Source of the DNA: Gaiellaceae bacterium
Lineage (GTDB): Bacteria > Actinomycetota > Thermoleophilia > Gaiellales > Gaiellaceae
DNA length: 64,000 nucleotides
Reading direction: 5' to 3'
Assembly: GCA_035252585.1 (NCBI GenBank)
Contig: DATFCX010000010.1
Span: forward strand, 483 to 64,482
Shown here: piece after piece, positions 41,675 through 47,691 of the stretch
How the letters are laid out: every line of letters starts with the position of its first letter
How positions within the stretch are numbered: position 1 is the first letter of the stretch
Notes under the pieces: generated by a model
Databases searched by the model: none
Told to the model about the DNA's origin: nothing
The model's input: only the letters and a program-made list of their open reading frames with translations
Made by a program: the position numbers and the translations under genes

Positions 41675-43996
41675 ATGACCGACGACGAACTCCGCCTCCT
41701 CGATGCGTACTGGCGCGCCGCGAACTATCTCTCGGTCGGGCAGATCTACCTGCTCGACAACCCGCTCCTGCGCGAGCCGCTCATGCCGGAGCACGTCAAG
41801 CCGCGGCTGCTCGGCCACTGGGGGACGACGCCCGGCCTCAACTTTCTCTACACGCATCTGAACCGCGCGATCCGCGAGCGCGGCCTCGACGCGATCTTCG
41901 TCTGCGGTCCCGGCCACGGCGGGCCTGCGGTCGTCGCGCAGTCGTACCTCGAGGGGACGTACAGCGAGCTCTACCCGCACGTCACGCGCGACGAGGACGG
42001 GCTGCGGGCGCTGTTCCGCCAGTTCTCGTTCCCCGGCGGGATCCCGAGCCACGCCGCGCCCGAGACGCCGGGCTCGATCCACGAGGGCGGCGAGCTCGGG
42101 TACGCGCTCTCGCACGCCTACGGCGCCGCCTTCGACGATCCGGCCCTGACCGTCGCCTGCGTCGTCGGCGACGGCGAGGCGGAGACCGGGCCGCTCGCCA
42201 CGAGCTGGCACTCGAACAAGCTCTCGAACCCGGAACGGGACGGCCGCGTCCTCCCGATCCTCCACCTCAACGGCTACAAGATCGCGAACCCGACCGTCCT
42301 CGCGCGGATCCCGGAGGACGAGCTCGCCTCGCTGCTGCGCGGCTACGGCCACGAGCCGCTCGTCTTCACCAGCGGGTTCGACGACGAGGACGTCCTCTCG
42401 ATCCACGGCCGTTTCGCCGAGCTGCTCGACCACGCGCTCGACGACCGGCGGGCGACGATCGTGTTCCGCACGCCGAAGGGCTGGACCGGGCCGCGCGAGG
42501 TCGACGGAGTGCAGGTCGAGGGGACGTGGCGGGCGCACCAGGTGCCGCTCGCGGAGGTGAGGACGAACGAGCGGCACCGGCGCCAGCTGGAGGAGTGGTT
42601 GCGGAGCTACCGGCCGGAGGACCTGTTCGACGACGCCGGAGCCCTGCGCGAGGAGCTCGTCCTGCTCGCGCCCGAGGGCGAGCGCCGGATGTCGGCGAAC
42701 CCGAAGGCGAACGGGGGCCTCCTCCTGCGCGACCTGGTGCTGCCGGACTTCCGCCGCTTCGCGGTCGACGTGGACGAGCCCGGCGGCACGACCGCCGAGG
42801 CGACGCGCGTCCTCGGCCGCTGGCTCACCGAGGTCGTGCGCGCGAATCCCGACAACTTCCGCATCTTCGGCCCCGACGAGACGGCGTCGAACCGCCTCGA
42901 CGCCGTGTTCGAGGTGACGGCCAAGCAGTGGAACGCGCGGGTGGAGCCCGTCGACGAGCACCTCGCGCCGAGCGGCCGGGTCGTGGAGATGCTCTCCGAG
43001 CACCAGTGCCAGGGCTGGCTCGAGGGCTACCTCCTCACCGGGAGGCACGGGCTCTTCAACTGCTACGAGGCGTTCATCCACATCGTGGACTCGATGTTCA
43101 ACCAGCACGCGAAGTGGCTGAAGGTCACGCGCGCCATCCCGTGGCGGCGGCCGATCGCCTCGCTCAACTACCTGCTGAGCTCGCACGTCTGGCGCCAGGA
43201 TCACAACGGCTTCTCGCACCAGGATCCCGGCTTCATCGACCACGTCGTGAACAAGAAGGCGGAGATCATCCGCGTCTACCTCCCTCCGGACGCGAACTGC
43301 CTCCTCTCGGTGGCCGATCACTGCCTGCGCAGCCGGCACTACGTGAACGTGATCGTCGCCGGGAAGCAGCCGGCGCTGCAGTTCCTGCCGATGGACGACG
43401 CGATCCTCCACTGCACGCGCGGCGTCGGAATCTGGGACTGGGCCTCGAACGACGACGCCGGCGAGCCCGACGTCGTGCTCGCGTGCTGCGGAGACGTGCC
43501 GACACTCGAGACGCTCGCCGCGGCGTCGATCCTCCGCGAGCGGCTGCCGGAGCTCGAGGTGCGCGTCGTCAACGTCGTCGACCTGATGCGGCTCGAGCCC
43601 GAGAGCGAGCACCCGCACGGGCTTCCCGACCACGAGTTCGACTCCATCTTCACGACGACGCGCCCCGTCGTCTTCGCCTACCACGGCTACCCGTGGCTGA
43701 TCCACCGGCTCACGTACCGCCGCACGAACCACGCCAACATCCACGTGCGCGGGTACAAGGAGGAGGGGACGACCACGACGCCGTTCGACATGGTCATGCT
43801 CAACGACCTCGACCGATACCACCTCGTCATCGACGTGATCGATCGCGTGCCGGGCCTGGTCGAACGCGCCGGCCACCTCCGGCAGGAGATGGAGGACGCG
43901 CGGCTGCGCGCCCGCGCCTACGCCCGCGAGCACGGGGAGGACGCGCCCGAGGTGGCGGAGTGGCGCTGGCCGCCGGAGGCGGTCGTCTCGCCCTAG
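41675..43996 (+). CDS. xfp: xylulose-5-phosphate/fructose-6-phosphate phosphoketolase
   Basis: [43 protein letters not shown] and the rest of a 773-aa colinear phosphoketolase. SD GGAAGGAGAG upstream. Confidence 0.95.
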
Positions 43997-44838
43997 AAGC
44001 GCGCGCGGCGGGCGAGACCCGCCGCGGTGAGCACCCAGGCGGCGAGCGCGATCCCGAAGAAGACCGTGCCGACGTCGCGCAGGGCGGAGTAGCCGTCGGC
44101 GCCGCCGAGCACGCGGCTCGCGACGCCGTACATTCCCAGCGGGAAGACGAAGCTCCAGCGGGCCGCCTCGTACCGCCACCGCCGCACGCGCAGCTCCGTC
44201 ACCACGAGGAACGGAAACGCGGCCGAGGCGGCGGCCCAGGTGGCGAGCGCGACGCTCGAGCCGAGGGCTCCGCGGTCGAGCAGGAGCTCGGCGGCCGCGA
44301 GCGTCGTGATGGCGAGCGCCCCCATCACGATCCAGTGGGTGGGGTTGAAGCGGCGTTCCCGTACCGAGCTGTGGACGATCCTGCCGGCGACGACCGGATA
44401 GAGCGCGAAGCCGAGCGCCCAGAAGGCGAGGGCCGGCGCACGGAGTGGAGCCACGCCGTGCCGGTCCAGCTCGGCGGCGAGCACGCTCAGCGACTGCGTC
44501 GCGACGATCGAGAGCAGCGAGCCGGCCGCCTCGCTCCGGACGGTGACGGCGACCACGAGCCAGAGCGCGACCGAGAGAGACCAAAGCGCGAGCGCGAGCT
44601 GCCCCTCTCCCGCCAGCAGGAAGTCGGCGCCGATGACGGCCGTGCCGGCGACGACGGCGAAGGAACGGATCGAGCGCGCCCGCAGGATCGCGGCGAGAGC
44701 GATCCAGACCAGGCACGCGCACGCGAGCAGGAGGTCTGCGAGCGGGGCGATCCCCTCGAGCCGCGCACCGACGCCGAGGATCCCGGTCGCCATGACGACC
44801 GCGAACGCGCCGGCGTCGACCCCCTCGAGCGCGCGCAC
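43993..44838 (-). CDS. TehA/Mae1 (TDT)-like anion channel/transporter
   Basis: 281 aa with about 9-10 TM. The N-terminus [18 protein letters not shown] resembles the TDT family start. GTG start 9 nt after the MoaD-like stop. Family call tentative. Confidence 0.55.
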
Positions 44839-44847
44839 GCGCGGGCG

Positions 44848-45111
44848 CTACCCGCCGCTGATCGCAGCGATGACGTCGAGGCGCGAGCGCTCCGCGATCG
44901 CCGTGTCCAACCCGGCACGCTCGCCGTCGACGTAGACGTGGAGGTGCCGGCGCAGGGCCGGCCCCTCCTCGACGATCCGGTCGCGCAGCCCGGGCCACTG
45001 CGTCTCGAGCGAGTCGATCGCCGCGAGCACGGTCGCGGCCTCGACCTCGACGCGGCGCGGCAGCCCGGGGAAGAGCGGGGTCAGCGTTCCTGGGAGCCTG
45101 ACGTCCGCCAT
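44848..45111 (-). CDS. MoaD/ThiS-family ubiquitin-like small protein ending in Gly-Gly
   Basis: ATG 45111 within track ORF 44848-45177. 87 aa, HVYVDGERAG...DVIAAISGG-stop. The start lies 2 nt after the BNR gene stop. Confidence 0.7.
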   Translation of the reverse strand: MADVRLPGTLTPLFPGLPRRVEVEAATVLAAIDSLETQWPGLRDRIVEEGPALRRHLHVYVDGERAGLDTAIAERSRLDVIAAISGG

Positions 45112-45113
45112 GG

Positions 45114-46187
45114 TCAGTCGAGAACCGCCACGTCGACCGACGAGATCGCCGGCAGGTAGCTCGCGATCTCGCTCCACGTCTCGCCCTCGTCGGCGCTCGC
45201 ATAGACCTGGCCGGTGCTCGTGCCGAAGTAGACGCCGGGGACGTCGTGCGTGTCGATCGTCATCCCCTGGCGCAGCACCCCGAGATACGCGTTCTCCTGC
45301 GGAAGGCCCGTGCGCATCGGCTGCCAGCTCGAGCCGGCGTCACGCGTGCGCCAGACGGTGAGCTTGCCGTCGTGCATCGTCCGATCGTGGAGTCCGTCGA
45401 CCGGTGCCACGTAGAAGGTGTCGCGATCGTGCGGGTGGGCCGCAGCGGCGAAGCCGAAATCGCCCGGCAGACCCTCGGTGATCTCGTTCCACGACTGGCC
45501 GGCGTCGTCGGAGCGGTGCACGCCGACGTGGTTCTGCTGGTACATGCGCTGCGGGTCGGCCGAGCGGACGAGCTTGTGGACGCAGAAGCCGACGTCCTCG
45601 TAGTCCGCGGGCCAGTCGCGCCGGAGGCCCTTGTTCCGCGGGGTCCACGACGAGCCGCCGTCCTCGGTCTGGAAGGCGCCGATGCCCTGGACGATCGCGA
45701 AGAAGTCGTCGGAATCTCCGCTGTCCGTGACGAAGCCCGAGATCCCCAGATGGCCGGGCGGCTGGTTCGCCGGGTCGTCCCAGCTCTCGCTGCCGTGCTG
45801 TCCGGACAGCGTCGACAGAAGCGCCCAGGTCTGGCCGTTGTCGCGGCTCTCGAAGATGCCCGGCGCCTCGACGCCGACGAGCAAGCGGTCGCCCGCGCGC
45901 GCGAGGGTCGAGGCCTTCGAGATCTTGCGCCCGTCGTCGTCGCCGTACGTGAGACCCTCGCTCGACTGCTCCCACGTCTCCCCGAGGTCGGGGCTGCGCC
46001 AGACGGTCGAGCCGTGCCACTCGCTCGCGGCAGCCGCGAAGATCGTGCCGGTGGTCGGGTCGTAGATGGCGTGGTAGACGGGCCATCCGTCGCAAAACGG
46101 GCCGCGCAGGTTCCAGTCGCGGCGGTCGTCGCTCTCGAGCAGGAACGTTCCCTTCCGCGTCGCGACGGTCAACAAAGTCTTCGGCAT
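45114..46187 (-). CDS. BNR/Asp-box repeat beta-propeller protein (sialidase/Ycf48-like fold)
   Basis: ATG 46187 is preceded by AGGAGAG. Six Asp-box-like repeats: SPDLGETW, SRDNGQTW, TEDGGSSW, SDDAGQSW, TRDAGSSW and SADEGETW. The upstream part of track ORF 45114-46577 is low-complexity. Confidence 0.8.
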   Translation of the reverse strand: MPKTLLTVATRKGTFLLESDDRRDWNLRGPFCDGWPVYHAIYDPTTGTIFAAAASEWHGSTVWRSPDLGETWEQSSEGLTYGDDDGRKISKASTLARAGDRLLVGVEAPGIFESRDNGQTWALLSTLSGQHGSESWDDPANQPPGHLGISGFVTDSGDSDDFFAIVQGIGAFQTEDGGSSWTPRNKGLRRDWPADYEDVGFCVHKLVRSADPQRMYQQNHVGVHRSDDAGQSWNEITEGLPGDFGFAAAAHPHDRDTFYVAPVDGLHDRTMHDGKLTVWRTRDAGSSWQPMRTGLPQENAYLGVLRQGMTIDTHDVPGVYFGTSTGQVYASADEGETWSEIASYLPAISSVDVAVLD

Positions 46188-46217
46188 CGATGCTCTCCTC
46201 ATCTCGCGGGGACTGTC

Positions 46218-46298
46218 GAGAGTGTCGCCGATTCGCACTCTCAGTGGTAGAGACTCCGCGGCTGCCGGAAAGTCATCGCTCCCGGCGGCCGCGGAGTC
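46218..46298 (-). other. two strong hairpins in the SRPBCC-BNR intergenic spacer (possible U-tract-less terminator/processing or regulatory element)
   Basis: Hairpin one: GAGAGTG (46218-46224) pairs with CACTCTC (46236-46242). Hairpin two is a 17-bp interrupted stem: GACTCCGCGGC-T-GCCGG (46252-46268), a 13-nt loop, then CCGGC-G-GCCGCGGAGTC (46282-46298). It starts 12 nt downstream of the SRPBCC stop. Confidence 0.5.
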
Positions 46299-46309
46299 GG
46301 AAGGTCGGA

Positions 46310-46747
46310 TCAGCCGGTCAGCGGCTTGCCGGTCTCGAGCAGCGTCTTGAGACCGGAGAGGACGAACATCCAGCCTCCGGAGACGCCCGCCGCGGTTTTC
46401 GGCGCACCCTCGAGCTGGTCGTGGACGACGGTGAGCTTGGTGATCCCGCCGTCCTGGGGTTCGATCTCCCAGGTGAGGCGGCTCGGCTCCTCCGCCGCCA
46501 TCTCGGGGTCGTAGGCCGAGATCCACTGGTGCACGAGCCGGTGTGGCCGGTCGGCCTCGAGCACCTCCTCGTCCCACTCGGTGTCGCCGATCACGGAGAA
46601 GCGGCGGCCGTCTCGTACCTCGATGCGGGCGCCGAAGAAGTACTGCTGCGTGAACTCCGGCTTCGTGATCGCGTCCCAGACCTGCTCGGGGGTGGCGCGG
46701 ATGAAGACGGAGTAGACCTGCGTTGTCTGTGCGGTAAGCGTGCTCAT
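46310..46747 (-). CDS. SRPBCC (AHSA1/START-like) family protein
   Basis: ATG 46747 overlaps the ArsR stop (ATGA). VFIRATPEQVWDAITKPEFTQQYFFG...RLTWEIEPQDGGITKLTVVHD is the typical Aha1-domain pattern. Confidence 0.8.
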   Translation of the reverse strand: MSTLTAQTTQVYSVFIRATPEQVWDAITKPEFTQQYFFGARIEVRDGRRFSVIGDTEWDEEVLEADRPHRLVHQWISAYDPEMAAEEPSRLTWEIEPQDGGITKLTVVHDQLEGAPKTAAGVSGGWMFVLSGLKTLLETGKPLTG

Positions 46748-47061
46748 GCGGTGTCCTCCAGTTCGTGCTTGAGATCCGCGAGCGCCGCGACGCGGTGCTC
46801 GGTGTACTTGTCGATCCACCGGTCGTGGATGAGCCGGATCGGAACCGGGTTCAGGAAGTGGAGCTTCTCCCGGCCCGCCCGGCGGGTGACGACGAGCCCG
46901 GAGTCCTCGAGCACGCGCAGGTGCTTCATCACGCCGAAGCGGGTCATCTCGAGCTCGGACTCGAGCTCCGTGAGCGTGCGGCCGTCGCGCTCGAAGAGCC
47001 GGTCGAGGAGATGGCGCCGTGTCGAGTCGGCGAGCGCCTTGAAGACCTGGTCGTCGTCCAC
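46744..47061 (-). CDS. ArsR/SmtB family transcriptional regulator
   Basis: VFKALADSTRRHLLDRL...LTELESELEMTRFGVMKHLRVLEDSGLV is a wHTH. 105 aa, GTG start. Confidence 0.85.
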   Translation of the reverse strand: MDDDQVFKALADSTRRHLLDRLFERDGRTLTELESELEMTRFGVMKHLRVLEDSGLVVTRRAGREKLHFLNPVPIRLIHDRWIDKYTEHRVAALADLKHELEDTA

Positions 47062-47072
47062 GCGGCGATTTT

Positions 47073-47092
47073 ACGTGACCAAAAGGTCACAT
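47073..47092. promoter_or_regulatory. inverted repeat, candidate ArsR operator
   Basis: ACGTGACC-AAAA-GGTCACAT. The core GTGACC/GGTCAC is perfect. It lies 12-31 nt upstream of the ArsR GTG in an AT-richer patch. Confidence 0.55.
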
Positions 47093-47103
47093 GTCAACTT
47101 GGT

Positions 47104-47691
47104 CTACGTGAACGGCTTCAGGACCATCGCGGCCACGACGATCAGGAGCACGCCCTCGTCTACCCGGGCAATGAGAAGGATCCGCCGGATGGCCGCCTGT
47201 GTCTCGGCCGCGTCCGCGCCCACCGTCTCGATCAGCTGTCCGATGCGCTTCGCCTGAGGGCCGAGGACGAGGAGGCCGGTCAAGAACGTGATCACGTAGC
47301 CGACCAGCCCCACCACGATCCAGGACGTTCCCCAGTCCAGGTTCAGGTTGACGACCATCGCTATGCCCATCGCGAGCACCAGCAGGCCGATGGGGGCGAA
47401 CACTCGCTCGCCGATGAATGCAGCCTGTCTCGCAATCGTCGCCATCTCAGAGGGATCGGATGAGCGCTCGGCTCGCAGCGCGAGGATCGTCAGCGTCAGG
47501 CCTCCGCCGACCCAGAGGACGGCTCCGGTCACGTGCACCCACTTGAAGAAGGCATACCAGTGCGACGGAGCGACGTTCGTCTTGAAGACGAAGACGAGCG
47601 CGAGGGCCAGGACGGCGAGCCCGACCACGGCGGTGACCGTGGTCGAGGCGCGGCGGTCTGTGGCCGTCGCGGCGGGATGTGAAGTGTCCAT
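47104..47691 (-). CDS. integral membrane protein (DUF2269-like, tentative)
   Basis: ATG 47691 within track ORF 47104-47787. Four TM spans; FFKWVHVTGAVLWVGGGLTL. Confidence 0.5.
   Translation of the reverse strand: MDTSHPAATATDRRASTTVTAVVGLAVLALALVFVFKTNVAPSHWYAFFKWVHVTGAVLWVGGGLTLTILALRAERSSDPSEMATIARQAAFIGERVFAPIGLLVLAMGIAMVVNLNLDWGTSWIVVGLVGYVITFLTGLLVLGPQAKRIGQLIETVGADAAETQAAIRRILLIARVDEGVLLIVVAAMVLKPFT

Follow-up and report, generated by a model that had tools for sequence, protein, structure and literature searches.

The window analysed here, a stretch of 64,000 nucleotides from a Gaiellaceae genome, carries a two-gene module that couples an Asp-box (BNR) beta-propeller to a small ThiS/MoaD-family protein. 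This pair alone is the conserved core of the locus, and its products appear to be direct partners: we propose that the small protein is a carrier activated in trans, that the propeller is its client enzyme and that both belong to a stress regulon, a reading to which, taken as a whole, we assign a probability of about one half. All characterised ThiS/MoaD-type proteins that we know of have led to a cofactor, to an amino-acid or natural-product sulfur pathway, or to protein tagging, and to our knowledge no beta-propeller serves as the client of a sulfur carrier. Here, a very widespread member of this group is locked to a partner fold never linked to such chemistry, which is mislabelled "sialidase" in thousands of genomes and whose 3B7F family has had a crystal structure without a function since 2007. 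A literature search found no publication on the propeller-carrier pair.

The module lies in a row of five genes on the minus strand (Table 1), for which the coordinates and spacings of the initial annotation were reproduced. The SRPBCC start and the ArsR stop overlap as ATGA, a 122-nt spacer separates the SRPBCC gene from the propeller gene, and gaps of 2 nt and 9 nt lead from the propeller stop to the ThiS-like start and from the ThiS-like stop to the TDT start.

Table 1. Genes and predicted regulatory features of the locus, in the direction of transcription (positions in the window).
Feature	Position	Strand	Details
Sigma-70-type promoter TTGACA-N18-TAAAAT	47068..47097	(-)	11/12 positions match
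ArsR/SmtB-family winged-helix repressor	46744..47061	(-)	105 aa, GTG start; HTH_20 6.7e-10
SRPBCC/AHSA1 protein	46310..46747	(-)	145 aa; AHSA1 E = 2e-20
Hairpin	46253..46298	(-)	19 bp, no U-tract; overlaps ECF56-type promoter
ECF56 (SigG-type) promoter-like motif CGATGACTT-N14-AGTC	46252..46278	(-)	64 nt upstream of propeller ATG
Cytoplasmic Asp-box (BNR) beta-propeller, 3B7F family	45114..46187	(-)	357 aa; six SxDxGxTW boxes
CysO-like ThiS/MoaD-family beta-grasp protein	44848..45111	(-)	87 aa; SGG-stop end
TDT/SLAC1-family membrane protein	43993..44838	(-)	281 aa, GTG start

The propeller gene adjoins a ThiS-like gene in 107 of 116 loci, and the linked loci span five phyla or classes (Actinomycetota, Chloroflexota, Alpha-, Beta- and Gammaproteobacteria), reaching from soil Actinomycetota to Pseudomonas aeruginosa and Ralstonia. 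The intergenic gap is mostly 0-25 nt (median about 3 nt), and the gene order is flipped in Beta- and Gammaproteobacteria. On the propeller tree, each major clade contains linked pairs, the only losses being one Streptomyces-like clade and sporadic cases in Alphaproteobacteria; some clades (Streptomyces, Rhodobacter) keep the propeller without the carrier. Natural ThiS-propeller fusions are found occasionally, in independent samples, and retain the GG at the junction. The propeller is the sole constant neighbour of the carrier gene, the genes 3' of the carrier vary in nearly every locus, and a recurrent sulfur-metabolism gene beside the pair was not found across the loci. The initially suspected partnership of the propeller with the GG protein is thus real. 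Nothing beyond the absence of a known pathway speaks for a chance adjacency of unrelated genes, which is refuted for the pair by linkage across phyla, in both gene orders and in natural fusions; we regard its probability as negligible.

The initial annotation had treated propeller, carrier and channel as one module, and held that a triplet not conserved in related genomes would imply accidental adjacency. The channel gene follows the pair in only three of seven same-genus relatives (the window and the genomes G317 and G307); since it is missing from the four others, which are equally close, and from all 80 other loci, this implication falls on the channel and not on the pair. The TDT channel is therefore a recent, lineage-specific 3' passenger in three genomes, outside the conserved system. 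Its family had been recognised correctly, as the protein is a full-length match to SLAC1 (PF03595; 79.9 bits, cut-off 27.9, E = 2.5e-22, residues 10-274), but the TehA/Mae1 likeness does not extend to equivalog level, given a TIGR00816 score of 35.9 against a cut-off of 237.

Upstream of the pair, the ArsR-AHSA1 genes are a recurrent but optional head: they accompany it in 12-14 of 80 loci, upstream every time, in at least five lineages that include other phyla. ArsR exceeds the NF033788 cut-off (59.9 bits, cut-off 55) and has no Cys in its 105 aa, which leaves no thiolate site for metal or metalloid sensing. A sigma-70-type promoter precedes it, the sole site of this kind within 3.5 kb (0.1 expected), and the palindromic operator noticed earlier is present as GTGACC-TTTT-GGTCAC (47075-47090) in the spacer between the -35 TTGACA and the -10 TAAAAT. 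Four relatives (L037-L040) share unchanged half-sites GTGAC-N6-GTCAC and conserved -35 and -10 boxes, while the centre of the palindrome varies. The -10 box ends 6 nt before the ArsR GTG, and the ArsR mRNA is therefore probably leaderless. ArsR-AHSA1 would form a separate, self-repressed unit; several lineages have it together with the module. In an extended form of the initial interpretation, ArsR, SRPBCC, propeller, carrier and channel would make and export an anionic sulfur compound in a single pathway. The 2-nt and 9-nt gaps fit co-transcription, the order is identical with 10-13-nt gaps in G317 and G307, the head recurs in several lineages, and the TDT family includes the sulfite efflux pump Ssu1. 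Such a pathway is nonetheless largely refuted by the distribution of its genes, and we consider it very improbable: the channel is confined to three genomes and, at 76-79%, falls below the propeller (86-89%) in conservation, the genes downstream of the carrier differ at almost every locus, and most loci lack the head.

The small protein is indeed a ThiS/MoaD-type beta-grasp protein, as first annotated. Its carrier nature is indicated because it scores above the Pfam cut-off for ThiS (PF02597; 28.2 bits, cut-off 22.5), because its best solved relatives in a profile search of the PDB are CysO proteins (4n6e_B, Amycolatopsis orientalis, 2.5e-13; 3dwg_C, Mycobacterium tuberculosis, 3e-11), and because an exact C-terminal GG is present in 67 of 75 propeller-linked homologues. 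The AlphaFold model (pLDDT 91.9) has the strand-strand-helix-strand-strand pattern. An E1 or JAMM gene was not found near the five genes here or in 1.09 Mb of flanks covering all 116 related loci, nor was a known synthase nearby, which upholds the absence reported initially. That absence is less odd than was then thought, because another contig (C66) of the same genome encodes a rhodanese-ThiF E1, the ThiS that goes with it, a PLP enzyme and a JAMM, and because distantly encoded E1s common to several carriers are established, as for MoeZR (PMC3227635). The carrier shares 30-47% identity with the ThiS beside this E1. By analogy, the E1 would adenylate and thiocarboxylate the C-terminus of the carrier in trans. 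None of the cognate clients MoaE, ThiG or a PLP cysteine synthase was found beside the carrier, where only the propeller is constant.

Alternatively, the carrier may be a ubiquitin-like modifier of the SAMP/TtuB type, activated by E1 and joined to target lysines under stress, with the propeller as main target, receptor or E3-like specificity factor. SAMP1 is the best NCBIfam match (8.4e-11) and SAMP1 structures are matched at 2e-7, the propeller has an invariant Lys in a GTRKG motif, the genome encodes a JAMM, and the 1-8 residues that follow the GG in some homologues would need trimming. However, the SAMP1 score (NF041918) of 42.3 bits lies below the equivalog cut-off of 60, the CysO matches are stronger than the SAMP matches, and neither JAMM nor E1 is linked at any of the loci. 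We know of bacterial conjugation by ThiS-type proteins only for TtuB, and find this alternative rather unlikely.

The propeller is, judged from its sequence, a 3B7F-type single seven-bladed Asp-box propeller. It matches 3b7f_A over residues 5-352 (phmmer, 5.8e-53), the model of a fused homologue superposes on 3b7f with a TM-score of 0.89 at 38% identity, and its profile family is BNR/Sortilin-Vps10. The initial doubt about a secreted sialidase was well founded: the N-terminus has no signal-peptide-like features, the RIP motif is missing, and 3B7F is a single seven-bladed propeller (PMC2716378) whereas GH33 exo-alpha-sialidases are six-bladed with an FRIP/Arg-triad. Sialidase chains match at only about 3e-4, over the Asp-box region. 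A GH74 xyloglucanase, with two tandem seven-bladed propellers, does not fit a single propeller either (target-normalised TM-score only 0.3). Among sequences at only 31-66% identity, a set of polar residues is near-invariant (K12, C202, H204, Q218, N219, H220, R225, H251, R269, R306 and D312), and, judged by propeller topology, they fall at the beginning of strand A or in B-C turns of the homologue model; the near-invariant His of a GGLxLH motif is unaligned in the window's own subfamily. Going by this topology, the carrier would dock on the propeller with its GG tail reaching a conserved top-face site (His/Gln/Asn/Arg/Lys), so that the propeller would stand to its carrier as MoaE, ThiG, CysM or BexX stand to theirs. 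If so, it would use the sulfur or the activated C-terminus of the carrier to make or repair a small molecule or a macromolecule.

The propeller might instead be a scaffold or sensor that binds the beta-grasp body and the C-terminal carboxylate of the carrier without sulfur chemistry, the GG being kept for fit and the pair acting as adaptor or regulator in a stress response. Its structural neighbours beyond 3B7F are binding proteins (Ycf48, which binds the D1 peptide, sortilin, DAIP) or two-propeller glycosidases, with no sulfur enzymes among them. A fusion of a Ser/Thr kinase to the propeller has no transmembrane linker, which points to sensing or binding in the cytoplasm, the GG is internal in the ThiS-propeller fusions, and none of the 116 loci has a linked E1 or sulfur gene. 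On the other hand, the exact GG-stop together with the rarity of 1-2-residue caps is a signature of C-terminal activation, the nearest sequence relatives of the carrier are proven sulfur carriers, and the many invariant polar residues look catalytic rather than like an interface. We see such a binding pair as a less probable competitor of the client-enzyme reading.

The 122-nt spacer had been noted as structured, which stands (-60.8 kcal/mol for the whole spacer, z = -3.1, with a 19-bp hairpin); the ECF56-type promoter within it had been missed. The hairpin pairing is kept in the relatives L037 and L038 and the hairpin is missing in L039 and L040; it may terminate or attenuate the ArsR-SRPBCC transcript. 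The consensus given in a preprint on ECF56 is CGATGAGTT-N14-GGTC (bioRxiv 10.1101/2020.01.30.927608), and the window has AGTC as -10 box. The motif occurs at three sites in the 1.9-Mb genome, with none in the reversed control, and in 33 of 116 loci it is found 59-166 nt before the propeller gene, where about 0.2 would be expected (background 0.0016 per 300 nt). Another of the three sites stands before a RibD_C gene, and RibD_C genes are among those reported for the ECF56/SigG regulon (bioRxiv 10.1101/2020.01.30.927608). On contig C24 the genome has a sigma factor of the TIGR02960/PRK08241 type that carries an NTF2-like tail and an MPP motif. The module would thus be transcribed from its own predicted ECF56 (SigG-type) stress promoter, and on the strength of this motif the pair most likely belongs to a stress regulon. 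The running text of the same preprint, as distinct from its gene table, does not mention MoaD, BNR or sialidase; it connects the mycobacterial ECF56/SigG regulon to the PafBC DNA-damage response. The link of the pair in other lineages is to ECF42. A further step, that the propeller represents a new class of client enzyme for thiocarboxylate carriers in ECF56/SigG and ECF42 stress regulons, is put forward tentatively. The promoter motif ties the pair to ECF56/SigG and gives a testable handle on both the pair and these regulons.

Compared with known systems, the closest solved relatives of the carrier, which share its GG terminus, are found in CysO-CysM of M. tuberculosis (PDB 3DWG) and CysO-BexX of A. 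orientalis (PDB 4N6E). As there, the carrier gene is tightly coupled to one partner gene and the E1 is encoded elsewhere and probably shared, but the partner is a seven-bladed Asp-box propeller instead of a PLP enzyme or a ThiG-like TIM barrel, and no Mec-type JAMM is linked. Like MoaD-MoaE molybdopterin synthase, the pair is a two-protein carrier/client unit; unlike it, it contains no MoaE domain and is not generally linked to Moco genes, a gene for a MoaD-MoaE fusion lying 2-5 kb from the pair only in seven related Chloroflexota loci. The rare fusions, with N-terminal carrier and GG at the junction, resemble the fused MoaD-MoaE protein MoaX of M. tuberculosis, whose activity requires cleavage at the GG (PMC4326299). 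The family structure 3B7F (Reut_B4987, Cupriavidus pinatubonensis JMP134) comes from structural genomics, where it is described as a "putative glycosyl hydrolase with BNR repeats"; it contains no partner, and the 3B7F-related genes of Cupriavidus and Ralstonia have the ThiS-like gene upstream, whereas it is downstream in the window. With the ECF56/SigG regulon of Actinobacteria the operon shares an upstream motif of the form CGATGA(G/C)T(T/C)-N14-NGTC. Ycf48/HCF136 and the Vps10 domain of sortilin have the same propeller type (TM-score about 0.6 to Ycf48) at 12-16% sequence identity; they differ in being lumenal or extracellular assembly factors or receptors without a Ubl partner, but Ycf48 and sortilin bind C-terminal segments of peptides and offer a possible model of how the GG tail is held.

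The genes under study lie in a metagenome-assembled genome of the Gaiellaceae (Thermoleophilia), 58.6% complete. Five co-directional genes had been described there in the initial annotation, with spacings that are reproduced exactly and family assignments that Pfam and NCBIfam confirm for all five. PADLOC was also consulted for a role in anti-phage defence, and this reading was dropped, as the matches were generic winged-helix ones for ArsR and nothing else.

Features of the minus-strand array in the window
Feature	Position	Strand	Remarks
ArsR	46744-47061	minus	family by Pfam/NCBIfam
SRPBCC/AHSA1	46310-46747	minus	ATGA overlap with ArsR; family by Pfam/NCBIfam
Spacer	between SRPBCC/AHSA1 and propeller	minus	122 nt
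ECF56-type promoter motif (predicted)	46252-46278	minus	CGATGACTT-N14-AGTC; 64 nt before propeller ATG
Propeller	45114-46187	minus	357 aa; six Asp-boxes; family by Pfam/NCBIfam
Carrier	44848-45111	minus	87 aa; SGG-stop end; 2 nt after propeller gene
TDT membrane protein	43993-44838	minus	281 aa; 9 nt after carrier gene

The propeller family is large, with more than 4,500 matches among close relatives and 368 clusters at 50% identity (E <= 1e-30); of 301 Actinomycetota genomes sampled, 93 encode a member. Its gene neighborhood was surveyed in 116 loci, pooled from Actinomycetota, a Thermoleophilia/Chloroflexota/Alphaproteobacteria set (80 loci), annotated plasmid and chromid records, and same-genus genomes. 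Of these, 107 have a ThiS-like gene directly beside the propeller gene, and two of the remaining nine loci end too early to judge. The gap between both genes is mostly 0-25 nt, and 67 of 75 complete carrier ORFs end exactly in GG, with one or two additional residues in three more. The order is reversed, with the carrier first, in Ralstonia solanacearum, Cupriavidus metallidurans, and one Pseudomonas aeruginosa record, which the depositors labeled "MoaD/ThiS family protein" followed by "exo-alpha-sialidase." In the propeller tree every major clade shows the ThiS linkage; the only exceptions are one monophyletic Streptomyces-like clade and sporadic cases among Alphaproteobacteria. Single-ORF fusions in the order ThiS domain, GG, short linker, propeller occur in at least two lineages and were confirmed on contigs of independent samples. 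The Streptomyces-like clade (L023, L025, L035, and L121) has lost both the ThiS partner and the ECF56 promoter motif described below, losses that may mark a functional shift, and carries a convergent uracil-DNA glycosylase gene after the propeller gene. A propeller homologue without ThiS on a Rhodobacter sp. CZR27 plasmid (L119, NZ_CP023549.1) is divergent from the ergothioneine genes egtB-egtD, which may be a coincidence or a hint of sulfur metabolism.

The 87-aa protein was originally taken for a ThiS/MoaD-type beta-grasp protein, and its predicted structure has this fold (pLDDT 91.9). When a profile of 37 propeller-linked carriers was compared to solved structures, the CysO proteins of A. 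orientalis (2.5e-13) and M. tuberculosis (3e-11) ranked ahead of SAMP1 and MoaD. The propeller matches PDB 3B7F in sequence (5.8e-53), and the modeled structure of a naturally occurring fusion (pLDDT 87.9) has a TM-score of 0.89 to the same structure, followed by GH74 enzymes, Ycf48, DAIP, and sortilin as fold matches. The early judgment that a secreted sialidase is unlikely agrees with its seven blades and the lack of a RIP motif; with one single propeller, a GH74 identity was likewise rejected. Among sequences that are 31-66% identical, a Lys, Cys-x-His, Gln-Asn-His, His-Pro, three Arg, and an Asp are conserved. Going by typical propeller topology, several of the conserved positions would lie at inner-strand starts or B-C turns, the face of propeller active sites. 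The metagenomic protein P0144 (704 aa) joins a Ser/Thr protein kinase to a propeller of this family and has no membrane-spanning stretch between them, which suggests that the propeller can serve as a sensor or binding domain in the cytoplasm. A search of the literature on the pair, 3B7F, and PA1355/PA1356 found no functional study and, for the pair, no paper; these two tags are presumably the P. aeruginosa locus tags of the pair, a guess from the gene order near pmpM.

The TDT/SLAC1 gene does not share this conservation. It was proposed to form a triplet with propeller and carrier. Besides the window, two genomes of the same genus (G317 and G307) have it behind the pair, with 76-79% identity compared to 86-89% for the propeller. 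Four equally close relatives, which share the whole array GCS2-peroxiredoxin-(DUF2269)-ArsR-SRPBCC-propeller-ThiS, lack it at this place, as do all 80 loci of the Thermoleophilia/Chloroflexota/Alphaproteobacteria set. This distribution rules it out as a module member. Genes 3' of the carrier vary almost everywhere and include those for a metallo-beta-lactamase fold protein, a Pat-like acetyltransferase, Bax1-I, response regulators, and others. Because the TDT gene is patchy and the downstream genes differ, the triplet is a local arrangement at a synteny breakpoint. All-against-all clustering of 920 flanking ORFs gave no third universal partner; recurrent but not universal neighbors are AHSA1, ArsR, DUF1579, VOC/PhnB-like, and MarR proteins. 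One Chloroflexota group has a MoaD-MoaE fusion, acetyl-CoA synthetase, and a lysine-aminomutase-like protein nearby, probably a lineage-specific synteny; in seven Chloroflexota loci (L086, L088, L110, L111, L114, L115, and L116) the MoaD-MoaE fusion gene is 2-5 kb from the pair.

Upstream of the pair, the ArsR gene has the sole sigma-70-like promoter in 3.5 kb. The palindromic operator noticed at the outset, GTGACC-TTTT-GGTCAC, is located between the -35 (TTGACA) and the -10 (TAAAAT), which ends 6 nt before the GTG start, so that a leaderless transcript is probable. Four relatives keep the -35, the -10, and the GTGAC/GTCAC half-sites unchanged and vary in the palindrome center, which is the signature of a real operator. 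The ArsR sequence has no cysteine, and the protein is therefore no thiolate metal sensor. The upstream DUF2269 stop codon (47104-47106) is just 6 nt from the -35 box (47092-47097), so read-through from the peroxiredoxin operon would enter the ArsR operator directly. Searches with HMMs of the window's proteins and their relatives detected AHSA1 in 14 and ArsR in 12 of 80 loci, always upstream of the propeller gene and mostly on the same strand. These belong to the window's Gaiellaceae clade, Roseomonadaceae/Acetobacteraceae (with an intervening DUF1579 gene), Prosthecomicrobium, one Geminicoccaceae member, and Chloroflexota, and each lineage has its own palindromic operator. From this distribution, ArsR-AHSA1 is a head of the propeller-carrier module that recurs but is optional. 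A palindrome of the type (A/T)TAACC-N4-GGTTA(A/T) precedes the ArsR genes of ArsR-AHSA1 units in other phyla (L078, L084, L091, L097, and L108); the Gaiellaceae clade instead has GTGAC-N6-GTCAC.

The spacer carries a predicted ECF56-type promoter for the pair. A preprint gives CGATGAGTT-N14-GGTC as the experimentally defined ECF56/SigG motif (bioRxiv 10.1101/2020.01.30.927608). In 33 of 116 loci this bipartite motif, its boxes conserved and its spacer variable, lies 59-166 nt ahead of the propeller gene, compared to ~0.2 expected from a background of 10 matches in 1.9 Mb of flanks on both strands. They comprise most of the Thermoleophilia loci, nine loci from other Actinomycetota of several families, and two from Chloroflexota. 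The window's own genome has three sites in 1.9 Mb, and the reversed motif none. Its two remaining sites, C23:142624-142650 (+) and C61:28134-28160 (-) (L133 and L134), lie one before an MFS transporter gene and one before a RibD_C (deaminase-reductase-like) gene, candidate members of the same regulon; the reported ECF56 regulon includes a deaminase-reductase (bioRxiv 10.1101/2020.01.30.927608). The likely ECF56 sigma factor for the spacer promoter is encoded on contig C24 (L143:1444-2406, +; 320 aa, above the TIGR02960 and PRK08241 cut-offs). Its NTF2-like C-terminal tail contains an MPP motif, which the same preprint names as the ECF56 hallmark (bioRxiv 10.1101/2020.01.30.927608). The spacer had also been called structured, and a 19-bp hairpin (z = -3.1) is indeed present. 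It overlaps the ECF56-type promoter and may terminate ArsR-SRPBCC transcripts; two close relatives lack it, and all keep the promoter boxes. The spacer matched no riboswitch or other known RNA family in Rfam at E <= 1.

Six other loci have an ECF42 motif (TGTCGG-N17-CGTC; PMC6180224, Table 1) 60-126 nt before the propeller gene; the window's spacer lacks it. An ECF42-like sigma factor (419 aa, long C-terminal extension) is encoded at L150:1396-2655. The regulatory company of the pair includes ECF56 or ECF42 promoters and ArsR-AHSA1, DUF1579, VOC, and YciI neighbors, and the S. meliloti ECF42 regulon contains a hydrophobic-ligand-binding-domain protein and glyoxalase-like proteins (PMC6180224). 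Together, these associations group the pair with stress or detoxification genes. Three points are new here: the TDT gene is no longer counted with the module, an ArsR-AHSA1 head recurs upstream of it, and the pair is linked to ECF56 promoters.

As stated initially, no E1 or JAMM gene is near the pair; this holds in the window and throughout 1.09 Mb of flanks around related loci, which contain no homologue of this genome's E1 or JAMM. Both enzymes are encoded elsewhere in the genome, on contig C66 (L001 and L006), where a second ThiS-family gene is clustered with genes for a rhodanese-ThiF E1, a methyltransferase, a PLP-dependent (cysteine-synthase-like) enzyme, and a JAMM protein. This E1 is the sole ThiF-family E1 found in the incomplete genome. 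A pair that only binds, with no activation of the carrier, is rather unlikely, and a conjugation model is more doubtful still. The strict GG, the CysO-like sequence, the MoaX-like fusions, and the shared rhodanese-E1 elsewhere favor, at roughly even odds (about 0.5), activation in trans: the carrier would be converted to a thiocarboxylate by the shared rhodanese-E1 encoded away from the pair, and would then be used by the propeller as client. The C66 cluster resembles the CysO/CysM/Mec arrangement. The ThiS-propeller fusions are like MoaX in arrangement, which is active only after cleavage at its GG (PMC4326299), and a Deinococcus MoaD-MoaE fusion is cleaved by a JAMM (PMC8832034). The rhodanese-E1 itself, distant from the pair and shared, is comparable to MoeZR (PMC3227635).
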